A stretch of DNA of 39,903 nucleotides. It comes from a virus. Lineage: Duplodnaviria > Heunggongvirae > Uroviricota > Caudoviricetes. Numbering within the stretch: position 1 is the first letter of the stretch; the number at the start of each line of letters is the position of its first letter. The notes beneath the pieces were generated by a model. The model was not told the DNA's origin, did no database searches, and was given only the letters and a program-made list of their open reading frames with translations. The stretch is from the IMG/VR virus record IMGVR_UViG_3300018486_000049, positions 1 to 39,903 of that record. One strand, written 5' to 3'. Positions 20,471 through 39,903 of this stretch are shown here, piece after piece. A program made the translations under genes and the position numbers.

Positions 20471-20477
20471 AAAAGAA

Positions 20478-20508
20478 GTGAACAAGTTGAAATTATCAGC
20501 TTGTTCAC
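20478..20508. terminator. Candidate bidirectional hairpin terminator between convergent genes
   Basis: 9 bp stem GTGAACAAG / CTTGTTCAC with 13 nt loop, 8 nt after the Q stop. Confidence 0.45.
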
Positions 20509-20525
20509 TATTCTCTGTATTATCT

Positions 20526-20795
20526 CTACTGCATCCGTCCGGGTAAATCGCTTTCATTGCGTAAACGCCAAGCTAACTGTTCACGATCCCAAACTATATC
20601 GTCTTTGCTAGCCTTTCTAAAATTTGCTAGCACAGTACTGCTTATAGCGTAATTACCATTCTCATTAGTTTTGATGAACTCGTCCCCAAAGTCATTGATT
20701 AGAAATTCAACAACCTCGGACTGATACAACACACCATTAGAACGAGTGGTATTAACCATCCAGTCAACTATTTTTATCAGAGAATCATTCATCAT
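20526..20795 (-). CDS. Hypothetical small protein (about 89 aa)
   Basis: ORF in the AT-rich region between Q and the cos region; start chosen at MMNDS to limit overlap; no motif recognised. Confidence 0.45.
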   Translation of the reverse strand: MMNDSLIKIVDWMVNTTRSNGVLYQSEVVEFLINDFGDEFIKTNENGNYAISSTVLANFRKASKDDIVWDREQLAWRLRNESDLPGRMQ

Positions 20796-20994
20796 CACTC
20801 TCAGCTTTTGGAACAAATAAAACTAGAGTATCTTCATGAAAAACTCCGCGCTGGTTCTTAGCACCAATAAACCACGTACAAACTGCCATTGTAGCCGATT
20901 GGTAGTGATCAATTACCATGATTGGACCATGTCCTGTTGCATGTTTTACTTTCTGGCCCGGTGTATATTTTGCCACTCTCACGTCTCCTTTCAT
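20785..20994 (-). CDS. DUF2158-like small protein (YodC-like pattern)
   Basis: 69 aa with the G..VK...G.GP.MVI....C.WF pattern I associate with DUF2158. Confidence 0.5.
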   Translation of the reverse strand: MKGDVRVAKYTPGQKVKHATGHGPIMVIDHYQSATMAVCTWFIGAKNQRGVFHEDTLVLFVPKAESDDE

Positions 20995-21061
20995 GTGTAA
21001 GTTATCAATTTCAGAATATATCTACATTAATTGCAAGTAAACATGTTTGCGCGCGCTCGTA

Positions 21062-21074
21062 TCCCCGCCACGCC
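21062..21074. other. Candidate cos (cohesive end) site region
   Basis: Reverse complement GGCGTGGCGGGGA resembles the start of the P2/186 cohesive end as I recall it; lies in the non-coding gap between Q-side and A-side genes. Confidence 0.3.
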
Positions 21075-21453
21075 TGCCCGCTTTATGCAGTGGTTTTCAT
21101 GCACATGCATGACATGAGCAAAAGCCCGCCAGTTCTGGCGGATCTGAGCAAAGACGATCCTCAATCGATCATGCGATTTCATGCAGCATAGTCATGCACT
21201 GTCAAGGAAGTGAAAATCCGTATCTGAATGGCCACTTGAAAAACGGATCATACGGGTTTACAAAGATGAATGTTCGCTGTGAACGGGAAGCGGAAGTTAA
21301 CTTTCAGATAACATAATCCATATGCACGAGAACCTCTAAAATAGAATGGGACACCTAAGCGGGGTACTTACAACGATTCTTTCCATATTCACAGTTAACA
21401 CTCTGTTTGGCGTATTTTTATTCAAATAGCAAACACCAATAAAAGGAGTTTCC

Positions 21454-21789
21454 ATGAACAATATTCCCCCTATACCACAGTTAGGAATTTATGTCTCAAA
21501 AATCGATCCCACCCTACGTATCACTGTAACCGATGTTGATATTGTTGATGGTGAGGATGATTCTCCTGATGATGAATTGTTTTATTTAGTCCACTGGATC
21601 GAGGGGGAAGATGAAAGTGATATGACAGCAATGGGATTTGAGCTAGACCCAGTAGAGTGGCAGGCTTTCGTTGAATCTGAGCAATTAGTGTTTGAGCGTG
21701 ATCCGTACATGGATTCAATCCCCGAAAATTCAAACTTGGCAAAGATTCGGGATTTTCTCATGAAGACTAAACAGAATGATCATTCGTAA
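21454..21789 (+). CDS. Hypothetical strongly acidic protein (111 aa)
   Basis: Good ATG with GGAG upstream; Asp/Glu-rich runs (DGEDDSPDDE, EGEDESD); only plus-strand gene in this region. Confidence 0.55.
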   Translation: MNNIPPIPQLGIYVSKIDPTLRITVTDVDIVDGEDDSPDDELFYLVHWIEGEDESDMTAMGFELDPVEWQAFVESEQLVFERDPYMDSIPENSNLAKIRDFLMKTKQNDHS

Positions 21790-21943
21790 GTGTAAGCATC
21801 CATCAGGAAAATGGTTTTGTAAGTGAATCATCAACTTTTAGAGAGTCTCAGACACTCCCACTTCTGCTTCTGACACAAAGCGGACGATCACTTATCAAAA
21901 TAACCGCCCACCTTACGCCTTATTTCACTCATTGCCCAAACTA

Positions 21944-21973
21944 GCCCCCATCAGAATGAATCCTCCTGGGGGC
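21944..21973. terminator. Candidate bidirectional hairpin terminator
   Basis: GC-rich 7 bp stem GCCCCCA / TGGGGGC with 16 nt loop between convergent genes. Confidence 0.4.
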
Positions 21974-21981
21974 AACATTTC

Positions 21982-22215
21982 TTAATGCAGCCAGCTGTCG
22001 TCCTCCCACACCTTCTGCATAATTTTCATCACTTGTTTTCTTTCTTCATCCAGTTGCAGTCCGGTTAGTTCCACACCGTTAGAGCTACCTTTGCGAATGC
22101 GAATTACCGTTTTGGGATACAGGGGGCGCAGATTGCGGTAAAGCTCGGATTCAAGTGCGTCCAAGGTAGACTGGCTAATCTTCTGCTCTTTATCGATCAT
22201 TATTTCAATGCGCAT
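21982..22215 (-). CDS. DinI-like protein (C-terminal, DinI-like part of a Tum-type antirepressor)
   Basis: MRIEIMIDKEQ...VWEDDSWLH resembles DinI as recalled; SD GAGGTGA before the ATG at 22215; the frame is also open upstream to 22287. Confidence 0.7.
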   Translation of the reverse strand: MRIEIMIDKEQKISQSTLDALESELYRNLRPLYPKTVIRIRKGSSNGVELTGLQLDEERKQVMKIMQKVWEDDSWLH

Positions 22216-22225
22216 AAAAGTCACC

Positions 22226-22414
22226 TCAGCTGATGACATCCATTGAGCGGTTGTATTCGTGGCTTCTGATTTTTGCCATGAGTTCATCAGTCAATTCAGA
22301 AACCCACTGCAGAGCCAGCCCCTTCTCTTCATCACTACACTCACTAGCCGCTACAAGCTTAAGAAAAAAATCAATGCGCTGGAGCTTCAAAGACTCCAAA
22401 AAATAGTCCTGCAT
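22226..22414 (-). CDS. Small protein (62 aa), possible N-terminal part of a split Tum-like antirepressor
   Basis: GGAGG SD before the ATG; overlaps the upstream-open DinI frame out of frame; LexA box in its promoter. Confidence 0.5.
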   Translation of the reverse strand: MQDYFLESLKLQRIDFFLKLVAASECSDEEKGLALQWVSELTDELMAKIRSHEYNRSMDVIS

Positions 22415-22456
22415 CTTTCCTCCTATGACACCAAAACAATACTGTATACATAACCA

Positions 22457-22472
22457 CTGTTTATATTTACAG
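22457..22472. promoter_or_regulatory. LexA (SOS) box overlapping the promoter of the Tum-like module
   Basis: CTGTTTATATTTACAG, a perfect CTGT-N8-ACAG with AT-rich spacer, 43 bp upstream of the ATG at 22414; a half-site-like CTGTATACATAACCAC lies just upstream. Confidence 0.65.
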
Positions 22473-22566
22473 TATATAATAATCTTACTGATGTAAAACG
22501 TTTTTTTACGTTCATCGGCCTGATATGCCTGGTATTATTAAGAGCACGAATTGTTAACCCGCGTAA

Positions 22567-24981
22567 TTAATACAGGTTCCGCCACTTATCATCTTCCTTC
22601 AGACGCTGGTTCCGATAGAAGATACGCAGGCCTGCTCCTGACGGAATACTGCCGCCGCGAAGGAGCAAATCGACTTCTTTCTCGCTGCCATCAAATCCCC
22701 TGGACTTCAGTTCATAGACGAGCTGCTGTCGCTGATGGTCTGTAATTCGCTGTTTGTAGTCTTTACGCCGTTTCGGTTTCACCTGGCGTAACCTTGCAGC
22801 CAGTTCCCGGCGCTCTTTTTTGCTCATACTGTGCAGGTAATCGTGCAACTCCTTGTCATTCATACGGGTAATATCCGTTCTGGAGTCCCCATCAGCTGAT
22901 TTGTCTTTCCCTTGTTGGTTCAAATTTTCAGCAAAGGGACAGTTATTGCCACGAGTCCAAGGGGCGCAAGCGCCCTGGTCGGCTACCGCCTCCTGAACGT
23001 CAACGGCCTTACGAACCATTTTCCACTTCACTGCATGAGTGCAGATCTTGCCCTCTGCAATGGGTGACCAGATGCCATAAATACGAATGCCGTGATCGCC
23101 ATAGGCGGTCGGCTCTTCGTTGATTTCATAAGCGGTTCTGATAAGGTGATATTTACGGGGAACCAGTACGCCGCCCTGCTTCATGATGTAGGTGGCAAAA
23201 CAACCAGCATCAGCAGCAGCCAGGATGGCATCAAGGCGCGGGTCATCCAGTATCGGCGCACCTGCTTTTTTGTCACCCTGTTGCCTTGCCGCCTGACCAG
23301 CCAGCAAGCGAAGTTCACGGTAAGCCTGACGTCCCGGAATACCAAAGAAGCGGAACTGCTGAACACGATGCAGAGACGCCCAGGCATTAACGTATTCGGC
23401 GTTATCACGCAGGGATTTACCCGTTTCCTTGCTGATCTCGCCAGCCAGACCACGCCCGTCAATGTTCTTACTGATGTATTTCGCGATGTAGCTTGTCGGT
23501 GTTCCTTTGCGCGGGTTAATCAGCTCAGACTTAAAGCGTGGCCCCGTGTTGTTGCCCAGCTCCTCGCGGTCTACACGGATGGCAAACTTACGCAGTAATG
23601 CAGTGATGGCGCGGCGGTCTTTTTTACGCATGAAGCACATGAGATGCCAGTGCACAGTACCGTCATGGTGCGGCTCAGCCACCCGCACGCCATACCAGCG
23701 CAACCCGGTTTTGTGCATTGCCTTACGAAATGCAGCAAACATGCCGACCAGATAATCGCTACTTTGTCTTACCGTCGCATTTGTCCAGGTCGGGTTGGGT
23801 CTGCCGTTGTTGAGCGTGGAATGGAAACGTGACGGACAGGTGATAGTGTAGAAAACGGCGCAGTCACCGCGCATTTCCGCGATAAGCTCCAGACCTTTAA
23901 CACAGGCCATCATCTCATTGCGGCGATGCGCAGGGTTGCTGCTGCTGGCGTTTACCACATCCTCCATGTCCAGCGTGTCGCCGTCTTCGTTCACCAGTTC
24001 ATGAGAACGGAAAAACTCCAGCGACTTACGGCGCTGCTCACGTTTATGCATCACGGCTTCATAGCTGACATAGGGAGATGCTTTTTTGCTGACCAGGCAG
24101 ACAGCACGCAACTGCTCTTCCCGCCATTCGCAACGCATCTTCCATAATTTCCGATACCACCAGTCGGCGCACAACATACGCGCCAGCGAACCCGGAATGA
24201 GTTCATAGGGCACGGGTTTACGGCGGTTTCTTTTCCGACGGAGTTGCTCAAACGCAGGTGGGATGACATCCAGACGCAGGGTTTCCGCCGCCACCTTTTC
24301 CCATGTCTTGCGGATTTCTTCTGGCTTAACGTCATCGGTGGCATACAAATCGCCACAAGCTGCATCAAGGCACATGCTCATATGCGCAGCTACCAGGGTG
24401 GACAGGCGTTTCACCTGATCCTGACTCATTTCAGGCAGGATCAGCAGGCCCTCCATCCCTTGATGGCTTGCCATAAAACGGAAAGAAGCAGACAGCTGAC
24501 TGTCACGTACACAATCCAGTCGCTCCAGACATGGCTTAATCGTCTCACGCAAATAGCGGGAATAAGCCTTTGGCCTGCCCAGGCTGCTGAAGTATTCGAT
24601 ACGTTGCATCAGCGGCTTGCTAATATGGGTGGGCTGGGCGCTGACGTCCGCCAGAATGACCATGTCCGGGTTAAAACGCTGCTGTTCATGCGCCAGCTTT
24701 GCCCGGCTAATGAGCTTATCCTGCTCCATTTCGCGCTGGACAGGATCACGAGATTCATTAAAGAAATAACGCTCCCAGACCTGCTCACTCAGTGCATCGC
24801 GGCGCAGCTGTTCCTGCTCATTATCGGCAGCGTACAGAGTGATCAGGTTTGAAAGTGCAGACTCCGGCGCAACTTCCGCCGGGTCCAGATAAGGGTTAAT
24901 GGCCTTTTTCGGGCCGTTCCATGAAAATGCTGCAGCGGCCTCGTTAAAGCCGCTAGAGTTGCTCATATCGTCATGACTCAT
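22567..24981 (-). CDS. A: Replication initiation protein gpA (rolling-circle HUH endonuclease family)
   Basis: 804 aa; HWH (HUH-like) motif followed by YIAKYISK tyrosine motif; P2 A position. Confidence 0.9.
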
Positions 24982-27664: not shown

Positions 27665-27886
27665 CTAGTTGAATACAACATTGCAATCAGTAAGTGCATC
27701 AACGGTAAGAGCAGCAAGGTTGATCATTACCTTTTCTCTTTTCTTGTCTTTCCGAAGGCGATGACGAGGGATGCGACCATCAGCCAGCATATCGTTGATT
27801 GTGTCGATAGAAAGACCAGTAAGTTCGCTATAACGCTCAATTGTGACGTGCGGCGTATTCAGAGTTATTGAAATGTTAGGGGTCAT
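27665..27886 (-). CDS. Apl/Cox-like excisionase and switch regulator
   Basis: 73 aa HTH protein from ATG 27886, first gene of the lytic operon, divergent from the repressor. Confidence 0.6.
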
Positions 27887-27974
27887 GATGCAACATCTCC
27901 TATTGGCTTGTGGTGAGCCGGTATTAATCGTGACGAAAACTTCACAAAACGGAGAATAGGTTCGCATAAAGAAT

Positions 27975-28916
27975 ATGTCAACTAATAAAATCACATTTCG
28001 CCATATTGAAGATCATCTGAAAGCCATGGTCATGCAGAATCGAGGAGGGCAAAAAGTCATTGAGAGAATACTCATGGCCTATGGTTTCAAATCACGCCAA
28101 GCATTCTGTAACCACCTTGGTATTTCACAAAGTACAATGGCTAACAGATATGCACGCGATACCTTCCCTGCTGATTGGGTTGTTATATGTTCAATGGAAA
28201 CTGGCGCATCAATCGAATGGTTAGCATTTGGTTTAGATGCTGAAGAAGGAGTGCCAGTTCCTTCGCCAGAACGGCATGCTGAAAAACAGTCTGCAGATGA
28301 ATTTTGCAATGAAGTTCACACCCCCACGATAAAGTTCGATAATGAAAACCACATGGATTTCACTCGAGGGGGTAAAGCAGCAATAGAGCGAATTGTTAAG
28401 GCTTACGGTTACAAAACGCGCCAAGCCTTAGCCGATCACCTTGGCATCTCAAAAAGCACATTAGCTACACGATACATGCGAGACATTTTTCCGGCAGACT
28501 GGATCATCCAATGCTGTTTAGAAACAGGAGTGTCTCTCGAGTGGTTATCTTTTGGTAAGGGGCATTCCAATCAAACAAAGCTAAGTGGGTTGCTTACATT
28601 AGACTGCTATGATCTACGTGACGGCAAACTTACTGATCAAAGAGAATTAATCGTTTCGAGCGAAATTTTACCTCAAAATTTAAAACATCCCTATATAGTT
28701 AATTCCGCAAATGATTCATATATCATTAGCAAAGAGGAGTATCTTAGCGATGGTCTATGGTTAGTATCTATTAACGGAGAATTTACTTTTAGAGACATAT
28801 TTAAACTTCCAAACAATCGCATCCGCGTTGAAAACACAAAATATAGCTTTGAATGCGATAAAGAAGATTTGGAATTTAATAATAAAGTTAAAGGAATAAT
28901 TAGAAAAAGGGTTTAA
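27975..28916 (+). CDS. cI: CI-like immunity repressor with tandemly duplicated N-terminal DNA-binding domain
   Basis: 313 aa; residues about 23-85 and 122-184 are an internal repeat (about 60 percent identical, IERI..AYG.K.RQA...HLGIS.ST.A.RY.RD.FPADW...C.ETG.S.EWL.FG); C-terminal domain SDGLWLVSINGEF...; divergent from Apl/Cox. Confidence 0.8.
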   Translation: MSTNKITFRHIEDHLKAMVMQNRGGQKVIERILMAYGFKSRQAFCNHLGISQSTMANRYARDTFPADWVVICSMETGASIEWLAFGLDAEEGVPVPSPERHAEKQSADEFCNEVHTPTIKFDNENHMDFTRGGKAAIERIVKAYGYKTRQALADHLGISKSTLATRYMRDIFPADWIIQCCLETGVSLEWLSFGKGHSNQTKLSGLLTLDCYDLRDGKLTDQRELIVSSEILPQNLKHPYIVNSANDSYIISKEEYLSDGLWLVSINGEFTFRDIFKLPNNRIRVENTKYSFECDKEDLEFNNKVKGIIRKRV

Positions 28917-28918
28917 CA

Positions 28919-29968
28919 ATGAGCTTTACGAAAACTATTGAATTTGCAAACTATACCTTAAATTTTGGAGAGGACAAAGTTCTCTTAGATGCTTTTGATT
29001 GCATTGTTTTTCCTTCATTTTTCGCACAAAAATACGTTAGAAAATTTAAAGATACAGAATATTTCTTTACTGACACAAAAATTATTACGTTAGATACTAC
29101 AGATTCAGATTTTATTGGTCCTATAGTTCCAACAATTGCATTGTGTGGCCGCATTATAAAAAAGACCATATTTAAACGAGATCAAATATTTCAAGATGGT
29201 CAATTAATTCGAGATCACAGGACGCTAGAAAGTCACCCCAGCTCTATTTTTATTCTTATGCTTAATGAGCACAGATTAATGCTTTGCAAAGAGGTTTCTG
29301 GAGCCCCTACCCTAGAAGAATTTGAAAATACTAGCAAGTATTGCCTTGCACAGCGATATAATTCTTTTGTGGATTACGAAGTAAAAAAAAATAAAAGAAT
29401 TAGAAAGAAAAAATCATACATTGATCGACTGTATAAAAAAGATATTTATCGTAAACTAGGAGCCCCCAAATTACGGGTTACCCCCTTAACAGACCCAAGA
29501 TCATTGAGCAATTTTGTTGAACTCTTTTCTGTTGTTAATAGATTATCAATTGAGTTATTACCAACAAATAGTGAAAATATATCTCTTGATGGCTTCTGGA
29601 GGAAATTTGAACAAGAAAAAGAAGAACTTAATAGTAGTAAAGCTCAATTAGTATACACAAATAAAAATGAAGATGGTTTAAATTCTGATGCCGTCATTCA
29701 AAAAACAACAAGTGCAACCCGAATGGCCAACTCTAAAGTAATTATCAGTGGTAAAGATGAACACGGAGCAAGGCTATCAGGGAATAATGATAGTTTTACT
29801 CTAAAAGCATCAAGGCCACAACTTAGTTCTGATTTGGAAAGAGCTGCTCAAGAGGCGTATTCTGCATTCACAGAATTAAAGGATGAAGGAAATATTATTA
29901 TTCCAGAACGTGAAGATTATACTAAAATTTTTTCCAAGTTAACATCAATAATTTCTAGGTGGCTATAG
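28919..29968 (+). CDS. Cargo protein 1 of repressor-linked cassette, function unknown (349 aa, soluble)
   Basis: ATG 2 nt after the repressor stop; AT-rich; basic patch KKNKRIRKKKSYIDRLYKKDIYRK; no catalytic motif recognised. Confidence 0.7.
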   Translation: MSFTKTIEFANYTLNFGEDKVLLDAFDCIVFPSFFAQKYVRKFKDTEYFFTDTKIITLDTTDSDFIGPIVPTIALCGRIIKKTIFKRDQIFQDGQLIRDHRTLESHPSSIFILMLNEHRLMLCKEVSGAPTLEEFENTSKYCLAQRYNSFVDYEVKKNKRIRKKKSYIDRLYKKDIYRKLGAPKLRVTPLTDPRSLSNFVELFSVVNRLSIELLPTNSENISLDGFWRKFEQEKEELNSSKAQLVYTNKNEDGLNSDAVIQKTTSATRMANSKVIISGKDEHGARLSGNNDSFTLKASRPQLSSDLERAAQEAYSAFTELKDEGNIIIPEREDYTKIFSKLTSIISRWL

Positions 29969-29969
29969 T

Positions 29970-30575
29970 ATGAAATATACATTCAACCCAGAAGATCTGA
30001 CCAAAGAGCGATCTTTGCATGATGTTTACAAATTAACTAAAAAAATAAAGGTCAATTCATTTGACTTTTATTTCACATTATTGTTAGTGATATTATTATC
30101 TATTAATGCTTTTTGTCTATCTTCATCACCAGAGTTAATTTCATCTATTAGACAATGGACACCTTTAGTATTCGGATTCACTACAACAACATTAGGTTTT
30201 TTAATTACTGGATTTACAATATTTGCAACCATAAATAAACCTGAACTTTTCCTTTCATTAATGGAGTATAAGCATCCATTATACGGGATAAGTTACTTAA
30301 AATATGTTTATGGTGTATTTATGAGAGTATTTATATATTTCATATTTTGGTCTGTTATCTATCTTTTAGTCCTTCTTTTCGGGCAAGAAAATGGATTGGC
30401 TACAAAATTACTCAGAGCCTTAATGTTTTCTCATTGCACTAAAGTTGTTGGAGTTCAAATACTATATATACTCGTAGGAAGCAGTGCAGTGTTCCTTGTA
30501 TTAACTTTAAAAACTTTCCTGTTCAATATTTATGCTATGTTAATGCAATCTCTACGCTGGGAAGTAGAAAGATAA
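29970..30575 (+). CDS. Cargo protein 2, small multi-pass membrane protein (201 aa)
   Basis: ATG 1 nt after gene 1 stop with AGGTGG SD; about four hydrophobic helices; AT-rich. Confidence 0.7.
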   Translation: MKYTFNPEDLTKERSLHDVYKLTKKIKVNSFDFYFTLLLVILLSINAFCLSSSPELISSIRQWTPLVFGFTTTTLGFLITGFTIFATINKPELFLSLMEYKHPLYGISYLKYVYGVFMRVFIYFIFWSVIYLLVLLFGQENGLATKLLRALMFSHCTKVVGVQILYILVGSSAVFLVLTLKTFLFNIYAMLMQSLRWEVER

Positions 30576-30664: not shown

Positions 30665-31717
30665 ATGGCAGTACGAAAACTCACCACAGGAAAATGGCTA
30701 TGCGAATGTTACCCCGCGGGACGTAGTGGACGTCGTGTGCGTAAACAATTCGCCACCAAAGGTGAAGCTCTGGCTTTTGAGCGTCACACGATGGAAGAAA
30801 CCGAAGCAAAGCCCTGGCTGGGTGAATCAGTGGATCGTCGAACACTGAAAGACGTGGTTGAGCTATGGTTCAAACTACATGGTAAATCTCTGACAGCTGG
30901 GCAGCATGTCTATGACAAATTGCTGTTGATAGTTGACGCTCTGGGCAATCCCCTTGCAACCGATCTCACCTCTAAAATGTTTGCCCACTATCGAGATAAA
31001 CGCCTGACAGGAGAGATCTACTTCAGCGAAAAATGGAAGAAAGGAGCAAGCCCGGTCACCATTAACCTGGAGCAAAGCTATCTTAGTAGTGTTTTTAGCG
31101 AACTATCCCGCCTGGGCGAATGGTCGTATCCGAACCCACTGGAGAACATGCGAAAATTCACCATCGCAGAAAAAGAGATGGCATGGCTTACCCATGAGCA
31201 GATTGTTGAATTACTGGCTGATTGCAAACGTCAGGACCCAATTCTGGCACTGGTAGTTAAGATATGCTTAAGCACAGGCGCACGCTGGCGAGAAGCCGTA
31301 AATCTTACTCGTTCACAGGTGACCAAATACCGAATTACCTTTGTAAGAACGAAGGGGAAGAAAAACAGAAGCATCCCTATCAGTAAAGAGCTTTACGAAG
31401 AGATCATGGCGCTTGATGGGTTCAATTTCTTCACAGACTGCTATTTTCAATTTTTATCCGTGATGGAAAAAACGTCTATCGTGCTCCCTCGCGGTCAACT
31501 CACACACGTTCTGCGCCATACGTTTGCAGCGCACTTCATGATGTCGGGTGGAAACATCTTGGCCTTACAAAAAATTCTCGGACATCACGATATAAAAATG
31601 ACGATGCGTTACGCACATCTGGCACCGGATCATCTGGAAACGGCGCTCCGTTTCAATCCTCTGGCAACGCTGCCAAGTGGCGACAAAGTGGCGGCAGCGG
31701 TTGGCATTACCCCGTAA
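30665..31717 (+). CDS. int: Tyrosine integrase (P2/186 Int family)
   Basis: 350 aa with C-terminal catalytic signature LRHTFAAH...GHHDIKMTMRYAHL. Confidence 0.9.
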   Translation: MAVRKLTTGKWLCECYPAGRSGRRVRKQFATKGEALAFERHTMEETEAKPWLGESVDRRTLKDVVELWFKLHGKSLTAGQHVYDKLLLIVDALGNPLATDLTSKMFAHYRDKRLTGEIYFSEKWKKGASPVTINLEQSYLSSVFSELSRLGEWSYPNPLENMRKFTIAEKEMAWLTHEQIVELLADCKRQDPILALVVKICLSTGARWREAVNLTRSQVTKYRITFVRTKGKKNRSIPISKELYEEIMALDGFNFFTDCYFQFLSVMEKTSIVLPRGQLTHVLRHTFAAHFMMSGGNILALQKILGHHDIKMTMRYAHLAPDHLETALRFNPLATLPSGDKVAAAVGITP

Positions 31718-31880
31718 TAACCACCACTGACCACCAACCCAACTTATTGTTTTTACTCTAACTTATTGTTTTCATTAACCCGTTTACATAAATGGGTTTT
31801 TTGTTGCCTGAAATTTATGCCGTTTAAAATCATGATGTTAGAAGCACTGTTTTTTAACGATGGCGACAAATTGGCGGCAG
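31678..31880. repeat. att-like junction flanked by an imperfect 20 bp direct repeat
   Basis: TGGCGACAAAGTGGCGGCAG (31678-31697, inside the int 3-prime end) and TGGCGACAAATTGGCGGCAG (31861-31880, next to the ogr stop) flank an AT-rich 160 bp segment. Confidence 0.45.
31741..31772. repeat. Tandem 13 bp direct repeats in the att region (possible Int arm-type sites)
   Basis: AACTTATTGTTTT at 31741-31753 and 31760-31772; followed by a weak hairpin plus T-run (31777-31802). Confidence 0.4.
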
Positions 31881-31882
31881 AG

Positions 31883-32101
31883 TCAAAGAGAGAGCACCAC
31901 CTGTCCTGATTTCATTGGATGCGGCTGAACCGGATTTGACTCTTTTGGCGTTGCAATCGAACGAACAAAAGTTTCATGGGTAACAAAAGTATGGCTGCAG
32001 TTAATGTTCTGGCACTGGTTGTAACGCTCTTTGGTCAATGAAGATACCTGAAAACTGCTGCGAGTATGGGCGGCACTTCCACACAGTGGGCAAATCATCA
32101 T
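31883..32101 (-). CDS. ogr: Late gene activator Ogr/Delta-family zinc-finger protein
   Basis: 72 aa from MMICPLCGSAAH... with CPLC...CQNINCSH zinc-binding pattern matching Ogr as recalled. Confidence 0.85.
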   Translation of the reverse strand: MMICPLCGSAAHTRSSFQVSSLTKERYNQCQNINCSHTFVTHETFVRSIATPKESNPVQPHPMKSGQVVLSL

Positions 32102-32191
32102 TTTTCGAGTTCTCCCCATTTTTGCTAAATTCACAATAATGATACCGCATTATTCCATTTTGAAAACTTAAAAGTTCTCTATTACGAAGAA

Positions 32192-33292
32192 TCATTCCAT
32201 TTCGAAATCATTAATCTTCACTTCAAGCTCCAGACTGGTCGTAAAACCGTTATCCGGATTGACAGTATGCGTCAGGGTGGTAATAGTCCATTCCGCATCA
32301 TCTATCGGCTGTTTAAAGCCTCTGACTTTCACTGGCATTTCCGTGTAGAGATCCGCCCGACCTTCTGCCAGTTGTAGCGAGAATGACGCAACGCCACGTT
32401 GCAGGCGTTCCCACTGCATTTTCGCCGCCCGTTCGGCGTTGCTCCGGTTGGCATAGGTGCGATTAAGTACCAGCACGTTTTCATCTGTACCCACCAGGTA
32501 ATCGCCCTGCTTCGCTTCCGGCTCTTTCTTCTGCTTCTTAGTCCTGCGCTTACGCTTCACCGTGGTGCTTTCTTTCTTCGCGGGTTCGCGGGTATGCAAC
32601 CAGCTGGCAATTACGCCCGTGTAGGCTCCGCGATCTGCCAGGGTAAAGCGGTGACTGTCGCCGTCCTTACGTGTGATAGTGATAACCGGTAGTGGTTTAC
32701 CGCTGGCGCTTTTACCCTGTCCCTGCCGGATGAATAACAGATTGCCATTTTTCACCGACGCAATAGCACCGTACTGGCGCGCCAGCCGCATCAGAAAACT
32801 GCCGTCACTCTCATTGGTCTGGTCTATATGCTCCACAGGTTTATCCGACAGGTCTTCACCCAATGCCATCTTCAGTTTGTGCCGCGCAGCTATTTCCTTC
32901 ACCACTTCCCCAACGGTGGTCTTGTGCCACGATTTTTCACGGCGGGTATTCAGGGTTTCACGAAAATCAGCACTTCGCGCCCGGATAGTCAGGCGGTCCG
33001 GTGCGCCAGTGTGTTCAATCTCGTCCACCGTGAATGCTCCTTTCGGGAAAAGCGACTGCCCCTTCCAGCCCAACGCCAGCGTAATGACCGCACCACGGCG
33101 CGGCAGCACGATTTTTCCGTCGGCGTCGTCCAGCTCCAGATCAAGCTGGTCCGCTTCAAAGCCCCGATTGTCCGTCAGCGTCAGACTCATCAGGCGGTTA
33201 TCCAGCACAGTGGTGATATCCTTACCCTCAATACTGATGCTGAATGCCGGAGTTTTGTTGCCTTTGCTAAGCAGTTCAGAGCTGAAATTCAC
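32192..33292 (-). CDS. D: Tail protein D (gpD), second diverged copy
   Basis: 366 aa, start overlaps the U stop, precedes ogr as in P2. Confidence 0.85.
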   Translation of the reverse strand: MNFSSELLSKGNKTPAFSISIEGKDITTVLDNRLMSLTLTDNRGFEADQLDLELDDADGKIVLPRRGAVITLALGWKGQSLFPKGAFTVDEIEHTGAPDRLTIRARSADFRETLNTRREKSWHKTTVGEVVKEIAARHKLKMALGEDLSDKPVEHIDQTNESDGSFLMRLARQYGAIASVKNGNLLFIRQGQGKSASGKPLPVITITRKDGDSHRFTLADRGAYTGVIASWLHTREPAKKESTTVKRKRRTKKQKKEPEAKQGDYLVGTDENVLVLNRTYANRSNAERAAKMQWERLQRGVASFSLQLAEGRADLYTEMPVKVRGFKQPIDDAEWTITTLTHTVNPDNGFTTSLELEVKINDFEME

Positions 33293-33774
33293 GACAGCAG
33301 CCCTCCCACCGTTTTACTGATATCGCTTAAGGCAGACGTTGTCGTATCCTGCAAATTATTCAGCTGCGCACTGAGATCACCGAACATATCGGACAGGGAT
33401 TCATCCACCCGTTTGAGCGACAGGGTGAACTCAATCCGGCGCGGCATACCATCGCGGAAAAACTCCGTTTTAGTCTGATTCAGTCCCTCAATCACATACA
33501 TGCCGTAAATCGTGCCGCTGCCTTCAATCAGGGGCCATGCTTTCCCCTGTTCTGCCATCTGCTCCAGTGCCAGCAACGACAGCCTGCCGCCTGTTATTTC
33601 CGGCATAAGAACACCGGAAAGCGTCAGCATGTCGTTTTCCGGTCCCAGAAACTGCGTAGACGGACGTCGGTTTACCCGACTGTTTGCCGCATGTCGCCAG
33701 CTGCGTTGATACTGCAGTTCCTGATACGGAACGGTGCGCAGCATAAACACGTACAATCCCAGCACCATCATCAT
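33289..33774 (-). CDS. U: Tail protein U (gpU), second copy
   Basis: 161 aa, homologous but clearly not identical to 425-889. Confidence 0.85.
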   Translation of the reverse strand: MMMVLGLYVFMLRTVPYQELQYQRSWRHAANSRVNRRPSTQFLGPENDMLTLSGVLMPEITGGRLSLLALEQMAEQGKAWPLIEGSGTIYGMYVIEGLNQTKTEFFRDGMPRRIEFTLSLKRVDESLSDMFGDLSAQLNNLQDTTTSALSDISKTVGGLLS

Positions 33775-36700
33775 GCGTCGTATCCCCCCTGATCGCTGTA
33801 GTTACTCCTGGCTTTTGCCTTCAGCCTGCGTTCACGTTCATCAAGCTGGCGTGCCACCTCCCGCGCAATATCCTGCGCACTTTGTCCTGGCTGCGTCTGA
33901 ATGATGATCTGCGTCGGTGCCTCAATCCGTTGAACGAGCGGCACAGTGGCTGCGCGACTCACAATTGCTTCTCCACCTTTCGCGGGAAGTGCCAAAGGGT
34001 GCAACGGTGGAAGCTCTGCTGGCGCGGCAGCAACGCCCATCATTCCGGCAACAACGGCAGCCAGTGCAGCTGTATTTCTCCGGCTGGTCACATTTGCCGG
34101 GCCGTTAACAATTTCCGGCCCGTTTTCACCGACGATGCCAAACTGCCCGCGCGGGATATACCCGCCGCTGTCATACATCCCCGCAAAGCCATATCCCCAT
34201 GATGGAAAACCACCCGATGGCATCATCACTTTACCGTCTGCATTCACCGTCGCAGGTTGCTGACGCGTCACGCTTTCCGGCAGTTTTGCCTTTGCGGCCT
34301 CTTTACTGACAATGCCGAGCTTCTCCAGCAACCAGGAAACGCCGGATTTCAGGGAGTCCAGCGGATGCATGACCATATTCAGCCCTTCCGCCAGTGCCTC
34401 CCCGAATCGCCGCCCCATTGCCGCTGCGCTCTGCAGTTCGGCAGAGGTCGACTTAACGGGCGTCAGCAGATCAGTAAACCAGCCCCACAGCGCCTGCACT
34501 TTGTCGCCAATCCACTGGAACACGGGCTTAAGCGGTTCGAACGCTGCACTGATGGGACCTGCCGCCGCTTTGAATCCTTCCACCACGCCACCGAGAAATG
34601 CGGTGATGGGTTGCCAGTATTTCCAGACAACCAGCGCCACGCCCGCCAGTGCAGTAACCACAAGACCTATCGGACTGAGCAGAGCACCTAACAGACCAGA
34701 TATGGCATACAGGGCAACGCGCAGCATCGCCAGTGGACCAGATGCCAGTACTCGCAGCACCGTGCCTGCGGCGGCCAGTCCACCGCGCAGTACCGCCAGA
34801 GGATTCATAAACATCACAGCAACAGCACGTAAACCGGATAATCCAGACCGCAAAAGTGCAACCGGCGCACCTGCTACAGTTTTCAGGACATTTCCCGTCA
34901 GTGATGCCGTGCGGCGCAAAGACGACAACGGCGCAGTAAGTAAACCTGCGGCGTTGCCCGATGAAGCAAGCCCGCGTCGCAGCAGTGCCAGTGGTGCGCC
35001 AGCCAGCCAGGACAACGCGCTGCTGGTTCGAGTTACTGCTGCCGTAACGGAAGATAACGTTTTGATACCCAACACAGAGAATCCCAGACGGATCACTGCC
35101 AGCGGCCCCAGCACTGCAGCCAGCGCCACCGCTAAGGTGCCGAGGCCGACGGTAACCGCAGCCACAACAGCCGATGCTTTCATCAGTGTGCCTGTCAGTT
35201 CCGGGTTAGCTTCCACCCAGCGACGCAACGCCCCCGTGACGCTTTTCACCGTGTACAGAATATCCATCAGCGGCTGGCGCAGCGTTTCGCCCAGGCTGCT
35301 GAAGGTGTTCTGCGCTCCGGTTTTGACCAGCAACCACTGCGCAGAAAGTGAATCCTTGTTAATGTCGGATTCTTTCTGCATGGAGCCGAGCGCATCATTG
35401 CCCGCTGTCAGTTTTAACTGACGCTGCAGTTCCGGCAGGTTGTTTGCCAGTTTCGCCGCGTCATCGCCAAACTCTTTACCAAACAACATAGTCATGGCAG
35501 ACAGGCGCTTGTCCTGCGGCAGCGCGTTTACCTTCTCCAGCACGCGCTGGATGGTTCCCATCGCATCCTTCGTCATCTGCTTTTCAATCACTTCAGGATT
35601 GAGTTTCAGCAGATTCATCCCTTCAAAGAAACTCTTGCTTTGCATGGTGGCAATGGACAATTCACGCACCATCGCGTTTGCTGCACTGGCTGCAACCTCT
35701 GGCGCAGCGCCCAGTGTCAGGAAGGTGGAACCCAGCGCCGCCGCTTTACGATAATCCAGACGGTCAGCCACACCGCCCAGACGTTGCATCACATCAATGA
35801 TGTCTGCCCCTTTCGACATGGCGTTATCATCCAGATAGTTCAGCGCATCACCGAGCTGTTCAATATTGCGGGTGGGGATTTTGTAGAGCTGGGCGATTTT
35901 CCCCAGACTTTCTGACAGTTCATCCGCTGGCAGCTCAAAGGCTGTTGCCGCCTTTGCTGCCGTACTGGCGAAGGCCAGCAGGTCACGTTTCTGATCTTCC
36001 CAGCTGTCGTCAGGGTTTGCGACGTTCATGCGCGCACCACCTTCAACCAGTGCAGCGAAGTCCACCGCACCGTTTTCCATCGGCAACTGTTCGCTGGCAG
36101 CCTTGATGGCATCCTGCATTTCATAAAAACGTGCAGTGCGGTTGCCATTATCGTCACGCAAACCATTGACCTGCTTTGCCACACCTTTCATGGCATCTTC
36201 CATGCTGGTATAGCTTTTTACTGCCGCCATCACTGGCGCACCCATTGCCAGCCCTGCAGCCGTGGTGGTGGCTCCGGCACCTGCAATACGATCACGCACC
36301 TCCAGCGAACGGGCATAACTGGCACGCGCTGCATTCATCCTGCGCTGAGCTTCCCCCAGTCGCTTCAGCCGCGCCTCCTGTTTCGAAAGTTCCTGGTTAT
36401 AACGTGATGTTTCACGGGCTAAACGGGCAGTTGCTCCCGCATCGTCTTTCGCAGAAATTCCCGCCCGGTACAGTTCAGCACGCACAAGCGCCGTCTGCTG
36501 CTGCAGCTTTTTCTGGCGTTCTTCCAGGCGCTGAACAGCCAGCCGTTGACGGCCCAGAGCAACAACCTGACGTTGCGAAGGCGGCCCCATCGCTCCCAGT
36601 TCCTGACTGAGCAAATTTGCACGCTGGCGGGCATAGTTCAGCCTGTCGCCTAATTTCTGATTTTCTGCCTGCAGCTTTCGGAAGCTGTCCAGACTGCTCC

Positions 36701-36848
36701 CGGCCTGATCAAGCTGCTTTATTGCATCGCGGGATTTTTTGACAGCAGCAGCCAGTTCTCTTGAACTGGCCTGCGCAGATCGAAATGGGCGGGTGAGCTT
36801 GTCAACCGCATTAAGAATGACCTGCAGACGCAGGTTGTTATCACTCAT
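33771..36848 (-). CDS. T: Tail tape measure protein (gpT), second copy, 1025 aa
   Basis: Coiled-coil N-terminus, hydrophobic repeats, 216 aa longer than the first copy. Confidence 0.9.
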   Translation of the reverse strand: MSDNNLRLQVILNAVDKLTRPFRSAQASSRELAAAVKKSRDAIKQLDQAGSSLDSFRKLQAENQKLGDRLNYARQRANLLSQELGAMGPPSQRQVVALGRQRLAVQRLEERQKKLQQQTALVRAELYRAGISAKDDAGATARLARETSRYNQELSKQEARLKRLGEAQRRMNAARASYARSLEVRDRIAGAGATTTAAGLAMGAPVMAAVKSYTSMEDAMKGVAKQVNGLRDDNGNRTARFYEMQDAIKAASEQLPMENGAVDFAALVEGGARMNVANPDDSWEDQKRDLLAFASTAAKAATAFELPADELSESLGKIAQLYKIPTRNIEQLGDALNYLDDNAMSKGADIIDVMQRLGGVADRLDYRKAAALGSTFLTLGAAPEVAASAANAMVRELSIATMQSKSFFEGMNLLKLNPEVIEKQMTKDAMGTIQRVLEKVNALPQDKRLSAMTMLFGKEFGDDAAKLANNLPELQRQLKLTAGNDALGSMQKESDINKDSLSAQWLLVKTGAQNTFSSLGETLRQPLMDILYTVKSVTGALRRWVEANPELTGTLMKASAVVAAVTVGLGTLAVALAAVLGPLAVIRLGFSVLGIKTLSSVTAAVTRTSSALSWLAGAPLALLRRGLASSGNAAGLLTAPLSSLRRTASLTGNVLKTVAGAPVALLRSGLSGLRAVAVMFMNPLAVLRGGLAAAGTVLRVLASGPLAMLRVALYAISGLLGALLSPIGLVVTALAGVALVVWKYWQPITAFLGGVVEGFKAAAGPISAAFEPLKPVFQWIGDKVQALWGWFTDLLTPVKSTSAELQSAAAMGRRFGEALAEGLNMVMHPLDSLKSGVSWLLEKLGIVSKEAAKAKLPESVTRQQPATVNADGKVMMPSGGFPSWGYGFAGMYDSGGYIPRGQFGIVGENGPEIVNGPANVTSRRNTAALAAVVAGMMGVAAAPAELPPLHPLALPAKGGEAIVSRAATVPLVQRIEAPTQIIIQTQPGQSAQDIAREVARQLDERERRLKAKARSNYSDQGGYDA

Positions 36849-37277
36849 CGTTGGCCCCGCTTCTCTGAATCGCTTTATACCGCCATTCCAGCACTTCGGT
36901 CAGCGGCATAACGTCAGTAACGGATGGCGGCCAGTGAAAAATGGTGGCGATATCTGCCACCAGATCGTCAACCGTCAGGCTGTCGGTAAACCGGCAAGCA
37001 CCGACTTCTTCAACAAAAAAGTGACAACCTCAACCGACATGGCAGTGAGATCTGCCGGGTCCATCTCTGCAATTTCCTGTGCAGTCAGTGCCGGACTGGA
37101 GATGCGGGGGATCACGGTCATCATCGCGTTTACATCCATATCCATAATGGCCTGCAGGCGTGTACCGCGCAGCGCACCGGACTGCGGTTTACGCAGCACA
37201 ATTTCGGTGATTTCTGTTTTACCGCGCTTGATGGGGGTATCCAGTTGAATGGTCTTTTCAGTCTGCTTATCGCTCAT
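36841..37277 (-). CDS. E+E-prime -1 frameshift product, second copy
   Basis: Plus-strand CAAAAAA at 37014-37020; -1 frame open to a TGA at 36841-36843 overlapping the T start. Confidence 0.6.
36975..37277 (-). CDS. E: Tail assembly chaperone gpE, second copy
   Basis: 100 aa, ends just after a TTTTTTG slippery site. Confidence 0.8.
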   Translation of the reverse strand: MSDKQTEKTIQLDTPIKRGKTEITEIVLRKPQSGALRGTRLQAIMDMDVNAMMTVIPRISSPALTAQEIAEMDPADLTAMSVEVVTFLLKKSVLAGLPTA

Positions 37278-37331
37278 TTTGCTGTCCTGTCAATTGGGTT
37301 CTGGCGCGGTATCCCGCGCCGTTCAGATATA

Positions 37332-37847
37332 TCAGAGGCCGAGGGCGTTGCGGTGCGCTTCCATCAGGTCCACACCGTCCACAATTTCCACCATGTTGAT
37401 AAGGTCCACTTCATAGAGCACCTCACCATTGATGGTCAGCTTCGCGTAGCTGTTGGTACTGGTCACTTTGGTGGTGTTGCTTTCGCCCGTCTTCCACTCG
37501 CCGGAATCCACTTCTTTGTGACGTCCACGCACGACAAGCTCCACGGCCTGCACTTCCCCGGTATCGTCACGCTGAATAGAGCCGGTAAAGCGCAGCTGGA
37601 TGCCATCCACCGTGGCTTTACCCATCTGTTTAAACAGCAGCAATTCAGTACCACCAATGGAAAATTCTGTGTCCAGCGCACTGTCATCAAGCCCCAGATC
37701 CACATCCACCGCACCCGGCATTCCGCCGCCGCGATACTTCTCATATTTGCGGGTAAATTTCGGCAGCGTCAGCGACTCAACGATCCCCTGCCAGTTGTTC
37801 CCGTCGTTAAACAGGTTCAGGTGTTTTAATTTGCGTGGTAATGCCAT
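37332..37847 (-). CDS. FII: Tail tube protein FII, second copy
   Basis: 171 aa, homologous to 3819-4337. Confidence 0.9.
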   Translation of the reverse strand: MALPRKLKHLNLFNDGNNWQGIVESLTLPKFTRKYEKYRGGGMPGAVDVDLGLDDSALDTEFSIGGTELLLFKQMGKATVDGIQLRFTGSIQRDDTGEVQAVELVVRGRHKEVDSGEWKTGESNTTKVTSTNSYAKLTINGEVLYEVDLINMVEIVDGVDLMEAHRNALGL

Positions 37848-37856
37848 GTTGTCCCC

Positions 37857-39029
37857 TTACGCGCTGACCTGGCTGGCGAAATTCACCAGGTACTGATCGG
37901 TGATGCGCTGACGCAGCATCAGGTTTTCAAGTGGCGGCACTGGCGTGTAGTCGTAGTCGATGGTGAGTTTTCCGGCTTTCAGCGTGTCTTTGTCGTTCAC
38001 CGACTCATCCAGCCAGCAATCACCACCAATGAGATAGCCCTGACTGACCAGGCTGCGCATTTTGGCGCGGATACCTTCGATAATGTCGCGGGCCAGCGAC
38101 GGGTTAAGCGGTTTATCCACCGCCCACATGTGTGCTTCTGCCATCGTGTCCATCAGCACCTGCGCCGTGCGGGTGTAGTTTTCGAAGGCAAAGAGCGGGT
38201 CATCACTCAGGCAGCGGGAACCCCAGAAGCGGAAACCGTCTTTACGCACAAGCGTGGTGACGTCGTTCTGGTTCAGCAGACCTGCATCGGTTGCCGGGTC
38301 CTGCAGATCCCAGAACACATCTGCAGAAATTCCGGTGACACCGTTCACGCCCACGTTGGACAGGCTTTTGTGCCATCCGGTCTGCTCGTCAATTTTGGCG
38401 CGCAGACCAAGCGCACGGGCGGTGGCATATGCCGTTGCTTCGGCATTCAGCACCGTGTCCCAGCCAGTAAAGTCAGGCCAGATCAGCATCCCTTCGCGCT
38501 GGCTGAAGTTTTCGCGGTAAGTGATCGCCTCCTGCACTGTCTTGCAGCCATACGCTGACAGGTAAGCAAATCCACGCAGGCTTTGCGCCACGCTCAGCAA
38601 CTCAGTAGCTACCGCCTTGGTGTCGTGGCCTGGCACGCCGAGAATGCGCGGTTTAACGCCGAGCTGTGACTGGGCAGATAACAGGGCTTTCATACCTGTT
38701 TTTTTACCTTCAGCAGTCACTGCGCCGATGATATTGGTCGTGGTTTCGTCTTCCGTTTCACCCTGCGGCACACGCACAACAATGGTCACGGGTTTTGCCT
38801 GGTCAGCGATGGCATCCAGCGAACGGGCCAGAGTACCTGACTCACCCGCTTTACCGCTGGCAGTCAGCACATCAGTGATCAGCACGGGTTTATTAAGAGG
38901 AAACATTTTTGCATCGGCATCATCGCCCGTGCAGACCATACCCACGATGGCGGTGCTCACCGTGGTAATAGATCGGGTGCCTTCGTTGACTTCAACAACG
39001 CGCACCCCGTGGTGGTAATCCTGAGCCAT
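37857..39029 (-). CDS. FI: Tail sheath protein FI, second copy
   Basis: 390 aa, homologous to 4350-5537. Confidence 0.9.
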
Positions 39030-39105
39030 AGTGGCGAACCTCCTGATTGGATTAGGCTTCGCCCTATGTTGAAGTGATTGTGCCTGACAAACAGCTAAGC
39101 GCAGT

Positions 39106-39123
39106 TGTGTCGTTATTCACACA
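39106..39123. promoter_or_regulatory. Candidate Ogr-type late activator site (TGT-N12-ACA) upstream of FI copy 2
   Basis: TGTGTCGTTATTCACACA, about 85 bp upstream of the FI start codon. Confidence 0.45.
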
Positions 39124-39171
39124 AAATAACGGTATTTGTCTGCTTGCAGGGATAATCAACATAATGCTGAT

Positions 39172-39738
39172 TCAGGGGGATTCATTGATCTTATTTGCCG
39201 GAAATTTTCTATAAATGGTAGAAACGCCTACATCAAAAATCAGTGCAATACGCTGTCTTGATTCTCCGGCCTCGAGTAAACGCCCAATCTGTGCCCACTG
39301 TTCGGTGGTCAACTTAGGACGGCGTCCACCTACTCTGCCTTTGGCACGAGCTGCAGCCAGCCCTGCCCTGGTACGTTCAACTATCAGTTCGCGTTCCATT
39401 TCAGCCAGGGCACCCATGACATGAAAAAAGAAACGGCCCATTGGGGTACTGGTATCAATACTGTCAGTCAGGCTTCTGAAATTCACACCACGCTGGCGCA
39501 ACTCTTCTATCAGCGTAACAAGATGCCGCATACTGCGCCCCAACCTGTCCAGCTTCCAGACAACCAGCGTGTCTCCTGCCGATAGTGTCCTGAGTAGTTT
39601 TTTCAGCCCCGGTCTGTCGGACTTAGTGCCACTGATTTTGTCCTCAAAAATCTGCTCACATCCCGCGCAGTTCAGTGCATTACGTTGCAAATCGGTGTTC
39701 TGGTCATTTGTTGACACGCGTACATAGCCAATAAGCAT
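39172..39738 (-). CDS. Serine recombinase, DNA invertase (Gin/Pin/Cin-like), second copy
   Basis: [22 protein letters not shown]... closely resembles Gin/Pin as recalled; catalytic Ser in RVS. Confidence 0.9.
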   Translation of the reverse strand: MLIGYVRVSTNDQNTDLQRNALNCAGCEQIFEDKISGTKSDRPGLKKLLRTLSAGDTLVVWKLDRLGRSMRHLVTLIEELRQRGVNFRSLTDSIDTSTPMGRFFFHVMGALAEMERELIVERTRAGLAAARAKGRVGGRRPKLTTEQWAQIGRLLEAGESRQRIALIFDVGVSTIYRKFPANKINESP

Positions 39739-39795
39739 GATCATCCCCCTGAATAAAAACCGGAGATGATGCCAGTTAGCTGTTACCTCTGCATT

Positions 39796-39819
39796 TTCTT
39801 AAACGTTGGTTTGGGAGAA
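39796..39819. repeat. gix-like crossover site of the second prophage
   Basis: TTCTTAAACGTTGGTTTGGGAGAA, near-identical to 6237-6260. Confidence 0.55.
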
Positions 39820-39903
39820 GCGGCTAAAATGAATGTAGGCACATTGGCGAATCATATACCTGATATTGGTATCTTCACGCTTTCTTTTTCAGGTACTGGA
39901 TAT
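39796..39903 (+). CDS. Start of alternative tail-fibre variable segment of the second prophage (partial, runs off the window)
   Basis: Frame reads [36 protein letters not shown], parallel to 6237-6360 in copy 1. Confidence 0.5.

Follow-up and report, generated by a model that had tools for sequence, protein, structure and literature searches.

In the annotated record of phage P2, the attachment region is arranged in the order Int P' arm within the last int codons, Cox, 27-bp core, IHF, Int P arm, terminator and ogr, and the record carries protein_bind features, whereas the arm sites of phage 186 are labelled 'predicted'. The 186 record gives these 'predicted Int arm-type recognition sequences' as YAYCGCCAYTY, with three sites to the left of attP and two to the right; units read in the int direction are GAATGGCGATA, AAGTGGCGGTA, GAGTGGCGATA and GAATGGCGGTG. 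It also holds an IHF (integration host factor) footprint on the int side and a 'predicted terminator of lysogenic operon' in the att region. In the paradigm of lambda attP (P1, P2, P'1-P'3), the N-terminal domain of the integrase binds distant arm repeats, IHF bends the DNA and a recombination directionality factor (RDF) sets the directionality of the reaction. Arm-site consensus sequences have been described for the P2 type (tgTGGaCa) and the 186 type (tgccGCCActt), and W/E/Y residues have been named as the discriminators of the 186 type (PMC3448106). The arm-site repeat considered here is an ordinary and already known component of P2/186-type attachment sites.

P2-like (Felsduovirus) prophages of E. 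coli and Klebsiella are known to integrate at the sRNA gene rybB (PMC3032704, PMC10121019, PMC4048246). Prophages at this site include Rybb* of E. coli W, B and Crooks, Kpn38RybB, KP12, 4LV2017 and the CFT073 prophage. With these the locus described here shares int, core and ogr at 96-100% identity on each side, as well as the 3' end of rybB as target. It differs from them in its context, as the window (the whole 39.9-kb stretch of viral DNA that was analysed) holds two different P2/186-like prophages in tandem, which gives a reconstituted P'-core-P junction and not an attL or attR. The left prophage extends from a truncated D at the window start through tail, head and replication genes to fil, cII, a Cox-like gene, cI and int, while the right prophage begins with ogr, D, U and T and has tail genes 67-76% identical to those of the left one. 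On the int side, identity to single E. coli prophages is 99.7-100% and the homology always ends at 31818; on the ogr side, identity to the CFT073 prophage is 99.7% and the homology always begins at 31792. The entire stretch from int through att to ogr is also present in Klebsiella phage KP12, with 98.8% identity. Because the left and right homologies belong to two tandem prophages and KP12 carries the complete stretch, the site between int and ogr is a P'-core-P (attP-type) junction. The 219-nt ogr coding sequence is annotated also in KP12, CFT073 and CFSAN061772. Cargo ORFs beside int had no matches in PADLOC, Pfam, PHROGs or NCBIfam.

At this junction the initial annotation had reported a 20-bp direct repeat with one copy in the int end and one by the ogr stop, and the sequence agrees. 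Copy 1 (TGGCGACAAAGTGGCGGCAG, 31678-31697) lies within the last 13 codons of int, and the end of copy 2 (TGGCGACAAATTGGCGGCAG, 31861-31880) adjoins the ogr stop codon (31883-31885, minus strand), about 2-3 bp away. Both are on the same strand and 19 of their 20 positions are identical. The second copy had been placed 160 bp downstream; this placement is right, but the exact gap is 163 bp (183 bp from start to start). Based on the comparisons below, the two 20-mers are very probably sites of arm-type binding by a 186-type integrase, one in the P' arm and one in the P arm of a P2-like attP, as read from sequence (Table 1).

Table 1 Features of the int-att-ogr region and related elements. Positions are those of the window unless stated relative to the int stop.
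Feature	Position	Strand	Content or basis
int, heterobivalent tyrosine integrase with 186-type N-terminal arm-binding domain	30665..31717	+	ORF; Pfam Int_N, Phage_integrase
P' (int-proximal) arm	31675..31697	+	Two tandem 11-bp units; contains copy 1
P' arm units, candidate arm-type Int sites	31675-31685, 31686-31696	+	AAGTGGCGACA, AAGTGGCGGCA
Expected RDF (Cox/Apl-like) site interval	31698..31740	+	Analogy to P2 and 186 annotations
Two candidate IHF sites	31741-31753, 31760-31772	-	AACTTATTGTTTT copies; consensus match
Intrinsic-terminator-like hairpin and T-run, int/lysogenic operon	31777..31803	+	Terminator scan
Common core, 27 bp	31792..31818		ATGGGTTTTTTGTTGCCTGAAATTTAT; attP/attL/attR/attB comparison
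IHF-like site between core and P arm	31828..31840	+	AATCATGATGTTA; one mismatch to WATCAANNNNTTR
P (ogr-proximal) arm	31858..31880	+	Two tandem 11-bp units; contains copy 2
P arm units, candidate arm-type Int sites	31858-31868, 31869-31879	+	CGATGGCGACA, AATTGGCGGCA
ogr/B-type late-gene activator, right-hand prophage	31883..32101	-	Pfam Ogr_Delta, zinc finger
Cox/Apl-like excisionase and repressor (RDF), left-hand prophage	27665..27886	-	PHROG 575, E = 1e-31
Arm units of this window, de novo search	-39/-28 and +144/+155 (int stop)		TGGCGRC
Arm units of P2, de novo search	-27/-16 and +147/+158 (int stop)		GTCCACA

The 20-mers each make up most of a pair of tandem 11-bp units that lie one helical turn apart, and TGGCG is invariant across all four units. 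Reverse-complementing the 186 consensus YAYCGCCAYTY and loosening one position (T to Y) to accommodate the window's own sites gives RARTGGCGRYR; to this the four units show 0, 0, 2 and 1 mismatches, and the P' units match the unrelaxed form RARTGGCGRTR at 10 of 11 positions. The units are oriented towards int in the same way as those of 186, and the sequence aagTGGCggca, obtained by reverse-complementing the published 186-type consensus, equals the second unit of copy 1. The octamer TGGCGRYR is found 37 times on both strands of the window, yet as tandem pairs 10-12 bp apart it is found only twice, both times at the att site, where 0.015 such pairs would be expected by chance. Likewise, when up to 3 mismatches are allowed, copy 1 and copy 2 are the only matches to the 20-mer in the 39.9-kb window against 0.02 expected, and none of 100 shuffles contained two. 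The shortness of the repeat is all that favours a chance similarity of functionless 20-mers, and with these expectations, and with the pairs conserved in phages whose flanking sequences have diverged, this explanation has virtually no probability.

The position of the core was obtained by aligning attP (the window), attL (ST131 strain 4224), attR (CFT073) and attB (K-12). The first 14 nt of the common core are the 3' end of rybB; attB of K-12 is identical over these 14 bp and has 4 differences in the other 13 positions, and RybB (Rfam RF00110, 105 bits) runs into the core in both CFT073 and K-12. A permissive Rfam scan of 31400-32200 gave sub-threshold noise only, and the window contains just the last 14 nt of rybB. 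In the alignment the two copies bracket the core, and the initial annotation of an att site flanked by the repeat is thus borne out. It had also proposed that the repeat marks the att core itself, and a direct repeat that brackets an att region, as cores bracket prophages, would suit a crossover sequence or a target-site duplication. However, the sequence common to attP, attL, attR and attB lies between the copies, and the attR feature entered by the depositor of Klebsiella phage 4LV2017 starts at the first base of this 27-bp core. Copy 1 stays beside int in attL and copy 2 beside ogr in attR, and neither is found in attB or in the bacterial flanks of attL and attR. Because both copies are missing from attB and each remains at one prophage end, the repeat is neither core nor target duplication, and such an origin is exceedingly improbable. 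In keeping with an arm site, the P arm still adjoins ogr in attR of the single lysogens CFT073 and 4LV2017.

Compared with P2, the window shows the same order of int 3' end with P' arm, expected RDF site interval, 27-bp core, candidate IHF site, P arm and ogr; in both, each arm consists of two direct repeats phased by 11 bp, at near-identical distances from the int stop. The arm motif itself differs (GTCCACA, of the tgTGGaCa type, in P2 and TGGCGRYA in the window), as do the residues of the Int N-terminal domain (Y/D/R versus W/E/Y), the core and the target, and the genetic switch (C repressor versus CI/CII). In P2, moreover, a terminator separates ogr from the P arm, whereas in the window the P arm lies right at the ogr stop and ogr has no terminator of its own. 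With 186, on the other hand, the window shares the arm motif, its orientation to int and the type of Int N-terminal domain, together with candidate IHF sites and a putative lysogenic-operon terminator inside att and a CI/CII/Fil-type early region. Over the first 65 aa, Int is 57% identical to 186 Int and 38% identical to P2 Int, and its N-terminus GKWLCECYP holds the discriminators W11, E14 and Y16. Differences from 186 are found in the region between int and att, where orf69 makes the arm sites of 186 non-coding, in the third, inverted unit that 186 has on the B (ogr) side, and in the RDF of 186, Apl, which is barely similar to the Cox-like protein encoded in the window. The arms of lambda are unrelated in sequence, have another number and arrangement of sites and do not overlap int.

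The att regions of 12 phage records were compared. Tandem pairs of TGGCGRYR were present on both arms in all eight 186-type phages (KP12, ev129, PSP3, SW9, GCS667, MHG75, SEN8 and 186), with Int proteins about 55% to 99.7% identical to that of the window. PSP3 and SW9 have near-identical P-arm 22-mers despite an Int of only about 55% identity. When the region is aligned with that of ev129 (about 75% identical), the flanking sequences differ but the two arms, the IHF-like sites and the core together with its hairpin are retained, and the sole mismatch between copy 1 and copy 2 falls at a position that is variable among the relatives (G, T or A). A de novo search for any 7-mer that forms tandem pairs of 10-12 bp on both sides of att found one motif family each in SEN4 (GTCTACA), ESSI-2 (TCCACNT) and SEN8 (TGGCGRC), in addition to those of P2 and this window (Table 1). 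Across these phages the arm motif tracks the Int N-terminal domain: W..E.Y goes with TGGCG, and Y/W..D.R(W) with motifs of the CCAC/CTAC type, as in P2 (Y..D.R; GTCCACA), SEN4 (GTCTACA) and ESSI-2 (D, R; TCCACNT), with the same geometry as here.

Alternatively, the repeats could be operators of a Cox/Apl-type RDF, an excisionase and repressor that also binds direct repeats spaced by a helical turn. The RDF sites of P2-like phages are indeed direct repeats with a spacing of 10-11 bp within attP (PMC7498355), but they are confined to a single arm and are seen again at the early-promoter switch, whereas TGGCGRYR is found on both arms of the window and is absent from its early switch (27887-27975). 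The motif is also common to 186, yet the Cox-like protein encoded in the window can be aligned to Apl over 20 residues only (40% identity), and it is the type of Int N-terminal domain that the motif follows instead. In addition, the 186 record lists the Apl sites apart from the arm-type sites. Operator function of the repeats is thus quite improbable, and binding by the N-terminal domain of Int is the preferred explanation.

The sites of the RDF itself would be expected, by analogy, between the P' arm and the core, here at 31698-31740. In this interval ACCACCA occurs twice, 10 bp apart (31720-31726 and 31730-31736), and as a guess this pair might be the RDF site. In ev129, where the Cox-like protein shares only 66% identity, this interval shows no conservation. 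A search for RDF operators in the form of 6-7-mers with a periodicity of ~10.5 bp in both the early switch (27887-27975) and the int-proximal arm (31698-31791) returned only a T-rich word, which is not convincing. The Cox-like gene lies upstream of cII (Pfam Phage_CP76) and opposite cI, and its product would be expected to be the partner of Int in excision.

Further elements between int and ogr can be proposed in a similar way. The tandem AACTTATTGTTTT repeats of the initial annotation exist as two copies, but 6 bp lie between them and they are not strictly head-to-tail. Each copy (also AACTTATTGTTT) is one mismatch away from the IHF consensus WATCAANNNNTTR on the minus strand, and both AACTTATTG copies are conserved in ev129, so that they are possibly IHF sites. 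A further candidate IHF site is AATCATGATGTTA, as the ev129 sequence aligned to it, AATCAATAGATTA, fits the IHF consensus exactly. The hairpin with a T-run that had been noted was found at 31777-31798, with a folding energy of -9.2 kcal/mol (z = -2.1); a G.U pair in the window is A-U in ev129. The 3' half of this putative terminator forms the first part of the core and has the same sequence as the 3' end of the RybB terminator. Because this half lies in the core and matches the RybB end, the terminator is retained in attL and rybB is restored in attR.

On the model of P2, 186 and lambda, Int would bind the arm units with its small N-terminal domain and the core with its core-binding and catalytic domains. 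IHF would bend the DNA between arm and core, with candidate sites at 31828-31840 and possibly at the AACTTATTGTTTT copies. A single Int could then bridge arm and core, and the intasome built in this way would recombine attP with the rybB 3' end; the Cox-like protein would bind and remodel the int-proximal arm to switch the reaction to excision. Physical binding by Int, IHF and Cox, as well as the bridging of arm and core, is here proposed by analogy to these systems.

The location of the P' arm within int has a consequence for the protein. Int is 350 aa long, and the P' arm lies within the codons for SGDKVAAA. The int frame runs through the P' arm, and the tail GDKVAA of Int is the DNA motif of the arm in translation. 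Read in the plus frame, copy 2 gives ...DGDKLAAESKREHHLS* (ORF 31766-31909), and the reading of copy 2 in the int direction up to a stop, as initially annotated, is therefore present. From this parallel (DGDKLAAES in the int frame of copy 2, SGDKVAAAV at the real end of int) it had been proposed that copy 2 is the relic of an integrase 3' end, that is, the decayed end of another int gene that remained after a duplication or an exchange of modules at att. The site is a boundary of two different prophages, and to this extent the surroundings agree with such an exchange. The repeat, however, is no evidence of it, as the pair is present in every 186-type relative compared, including the single phage KP12. 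When 31800-31940 was set against the int 3' ends (last 300 bp) of 11 phages by blastn-short, the only similarity was the arm block of 20-22 bp, and in the 25 bp on either side of both copies identity is at random level. Copy 2 also occupies the place of the annotated P arm of P2. Moreover, the int-side units are non-coding in 186 and SEN8, so that the motif is not derived from int codons, and descent of copy 2 from an integrase gene is very improbable.

Arm sites that happen to be read as protein account for these ends. Where int covers the int-side pair, Int ends in GDKVAA, GDKMAA, GDKMAV, GDKVAV or GDNMAA. In SEN8 the pair lies just past the int stop and in 186 past orf69, and the Int proteins of both phages end soon after a conserved NPL without a GDKVAA-like tail. 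Because the pair is non-coding in SEN8 and 186 and their Int lacks the tail, the peptide motif follows from the DNA motif and not the reverse. Reading of the int ORF through the P' arm would thus add a dispensable tail, ...SGDKVAAAVGITP, and the 'peptide' of copy 2 would be the same arm motif in the same frame within non-coding DNA.

Perhaps the overlap of the P' arm with int codons has a function of its own, in that Int bound at P', immediately upstream of the terminator that extends into the core, might exert feedback on how int and the lysogenic operon are expressed, or on the transcript 3' end. In a second proposal, the P'-core-P junction might be a live attP at which exchange or excision driven by Int could produce chimeric phages. 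Taken as proposals, these are unlikely.

With the arm sites in place, every element from int to ogr could be assigned, the RDF and IHF interval as a candidate, and the biology of the region does not go beyond that of P2, 186 and the rybB prophages. The assignment nevertheless explains the 'GDK(V/M)A(A/V)' end of many 186-type integrases as arm-site DNA read as protein, and it advises caution in that short peptide parallels at att sites should not be taken for gene relics.

The window is a double lysogen in which two different P2/186-like prophages (positions 1-31791 and 31792-39903) lie head-to-tail and meet at a single att site. Identity between the tail genes of the two is only 67-76%, and their tape-measure ORFs encode 809 and 1025 aa. 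Among the E. coli genomes of the collection searched, the left and right halves were each found singly at 99.7-100% identity, and the exact junction was found in no complete genome at >98% identity. Tandem prophages were also observed in E. coli CFSAN061772 (NZ_CP042893.1 2995525-3036173). Here a deleted 186-like prophage, which lacks most of its tail genes and whose tape-measure gene is truncated, is present in at least two or three copies in tandem. The int-attP-ogr junctions between these copies are intact, and the arrangement has the appearance of a defective prophage that has been amplified into an array.

Integration takes place at the 3' end of rybB, a sigma-E-dependent sRNA gene (window 31792-31818; locus L004 2436-2514; locus L015 2977-3055). 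The phage core contributes the final 14 nt of RybB, among them the T-run of the terminator. Over the 13 core positions that follow these 14 nt, K-12 attB and the phage core disagree at 4, whereas the phage version is present in both the attL and the attR examined. The core segment TTTTTGTTGCCT (window 31800-31812) is also found in phage 186, where, reading in the int direction (L005, about 1925-1937), it lies directly after the terminator hairpin of the lysogenic operon (GGCCTTTTTGTTGCCTCG). Phage 186 shares this segment with the window, yet the core that it uses is a tRNA-Ile one. The match could be a coincidence or, alternatively, a remnant of common ancestry of the att region.

Relatives also differ in their predicted arm-type Int binding units. 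Phage 186 (L005, about 1885-1895), GCS667 and MHG75 (loci L008 at 2450 and L009 at 2251, minus strand) have a third, inverted unit on the ogr/B side, immediately past the two direct units. This inverted unit is absent from the window, KP12, ev129, PSP3 and SW9; in PSP3 and SW9, as well as in SEN8, a third unit is direct instead and located about 20 bp further on.

Features outside the att site of the window
Feature	Window position	Location	Description
cI ORF	27975-28916		long; 313 aa counted from the first ATG
Two-gene cassette	28919-30575	between cI and int	AT-rich, 28-34% GC
Second variable region	20470-22567	between portal gene and replication gene	small ORFs, 95-111 aa

The cI genes of PSP3 and SW9 are likewise long. 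In the window, Pfam places the CI-repressor HTH domain in two stretches of the ORF, in addition to the CI C-terminal domain. The N-terminal HTH could be duplicated, or the start codon could have been assigned too far upstream.

In the second variable region, the small ORFs had no matches in PADLOC. HIRAN and HipA-domain genes occupy this slot in CFSAN061772. The cassette next to cI encodes a 349-aa protein, named DUF4747 in some RefSeq genomes, and a hydrophobic 201-aa protein that, judged by eye, is possibly a membrane protein; neither matched Pfam, PHROGs, PADLOC or NCBIfam. Relatives carry other genes at this position: ST131 strain 4224 has a KAP P-loop NTPase, KP12 has a 'chromosome segregation ATPase', and YdcA is found as well. 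The interval between cI and int looks like a variable cargo slot, possibly one with an anti-phage role.
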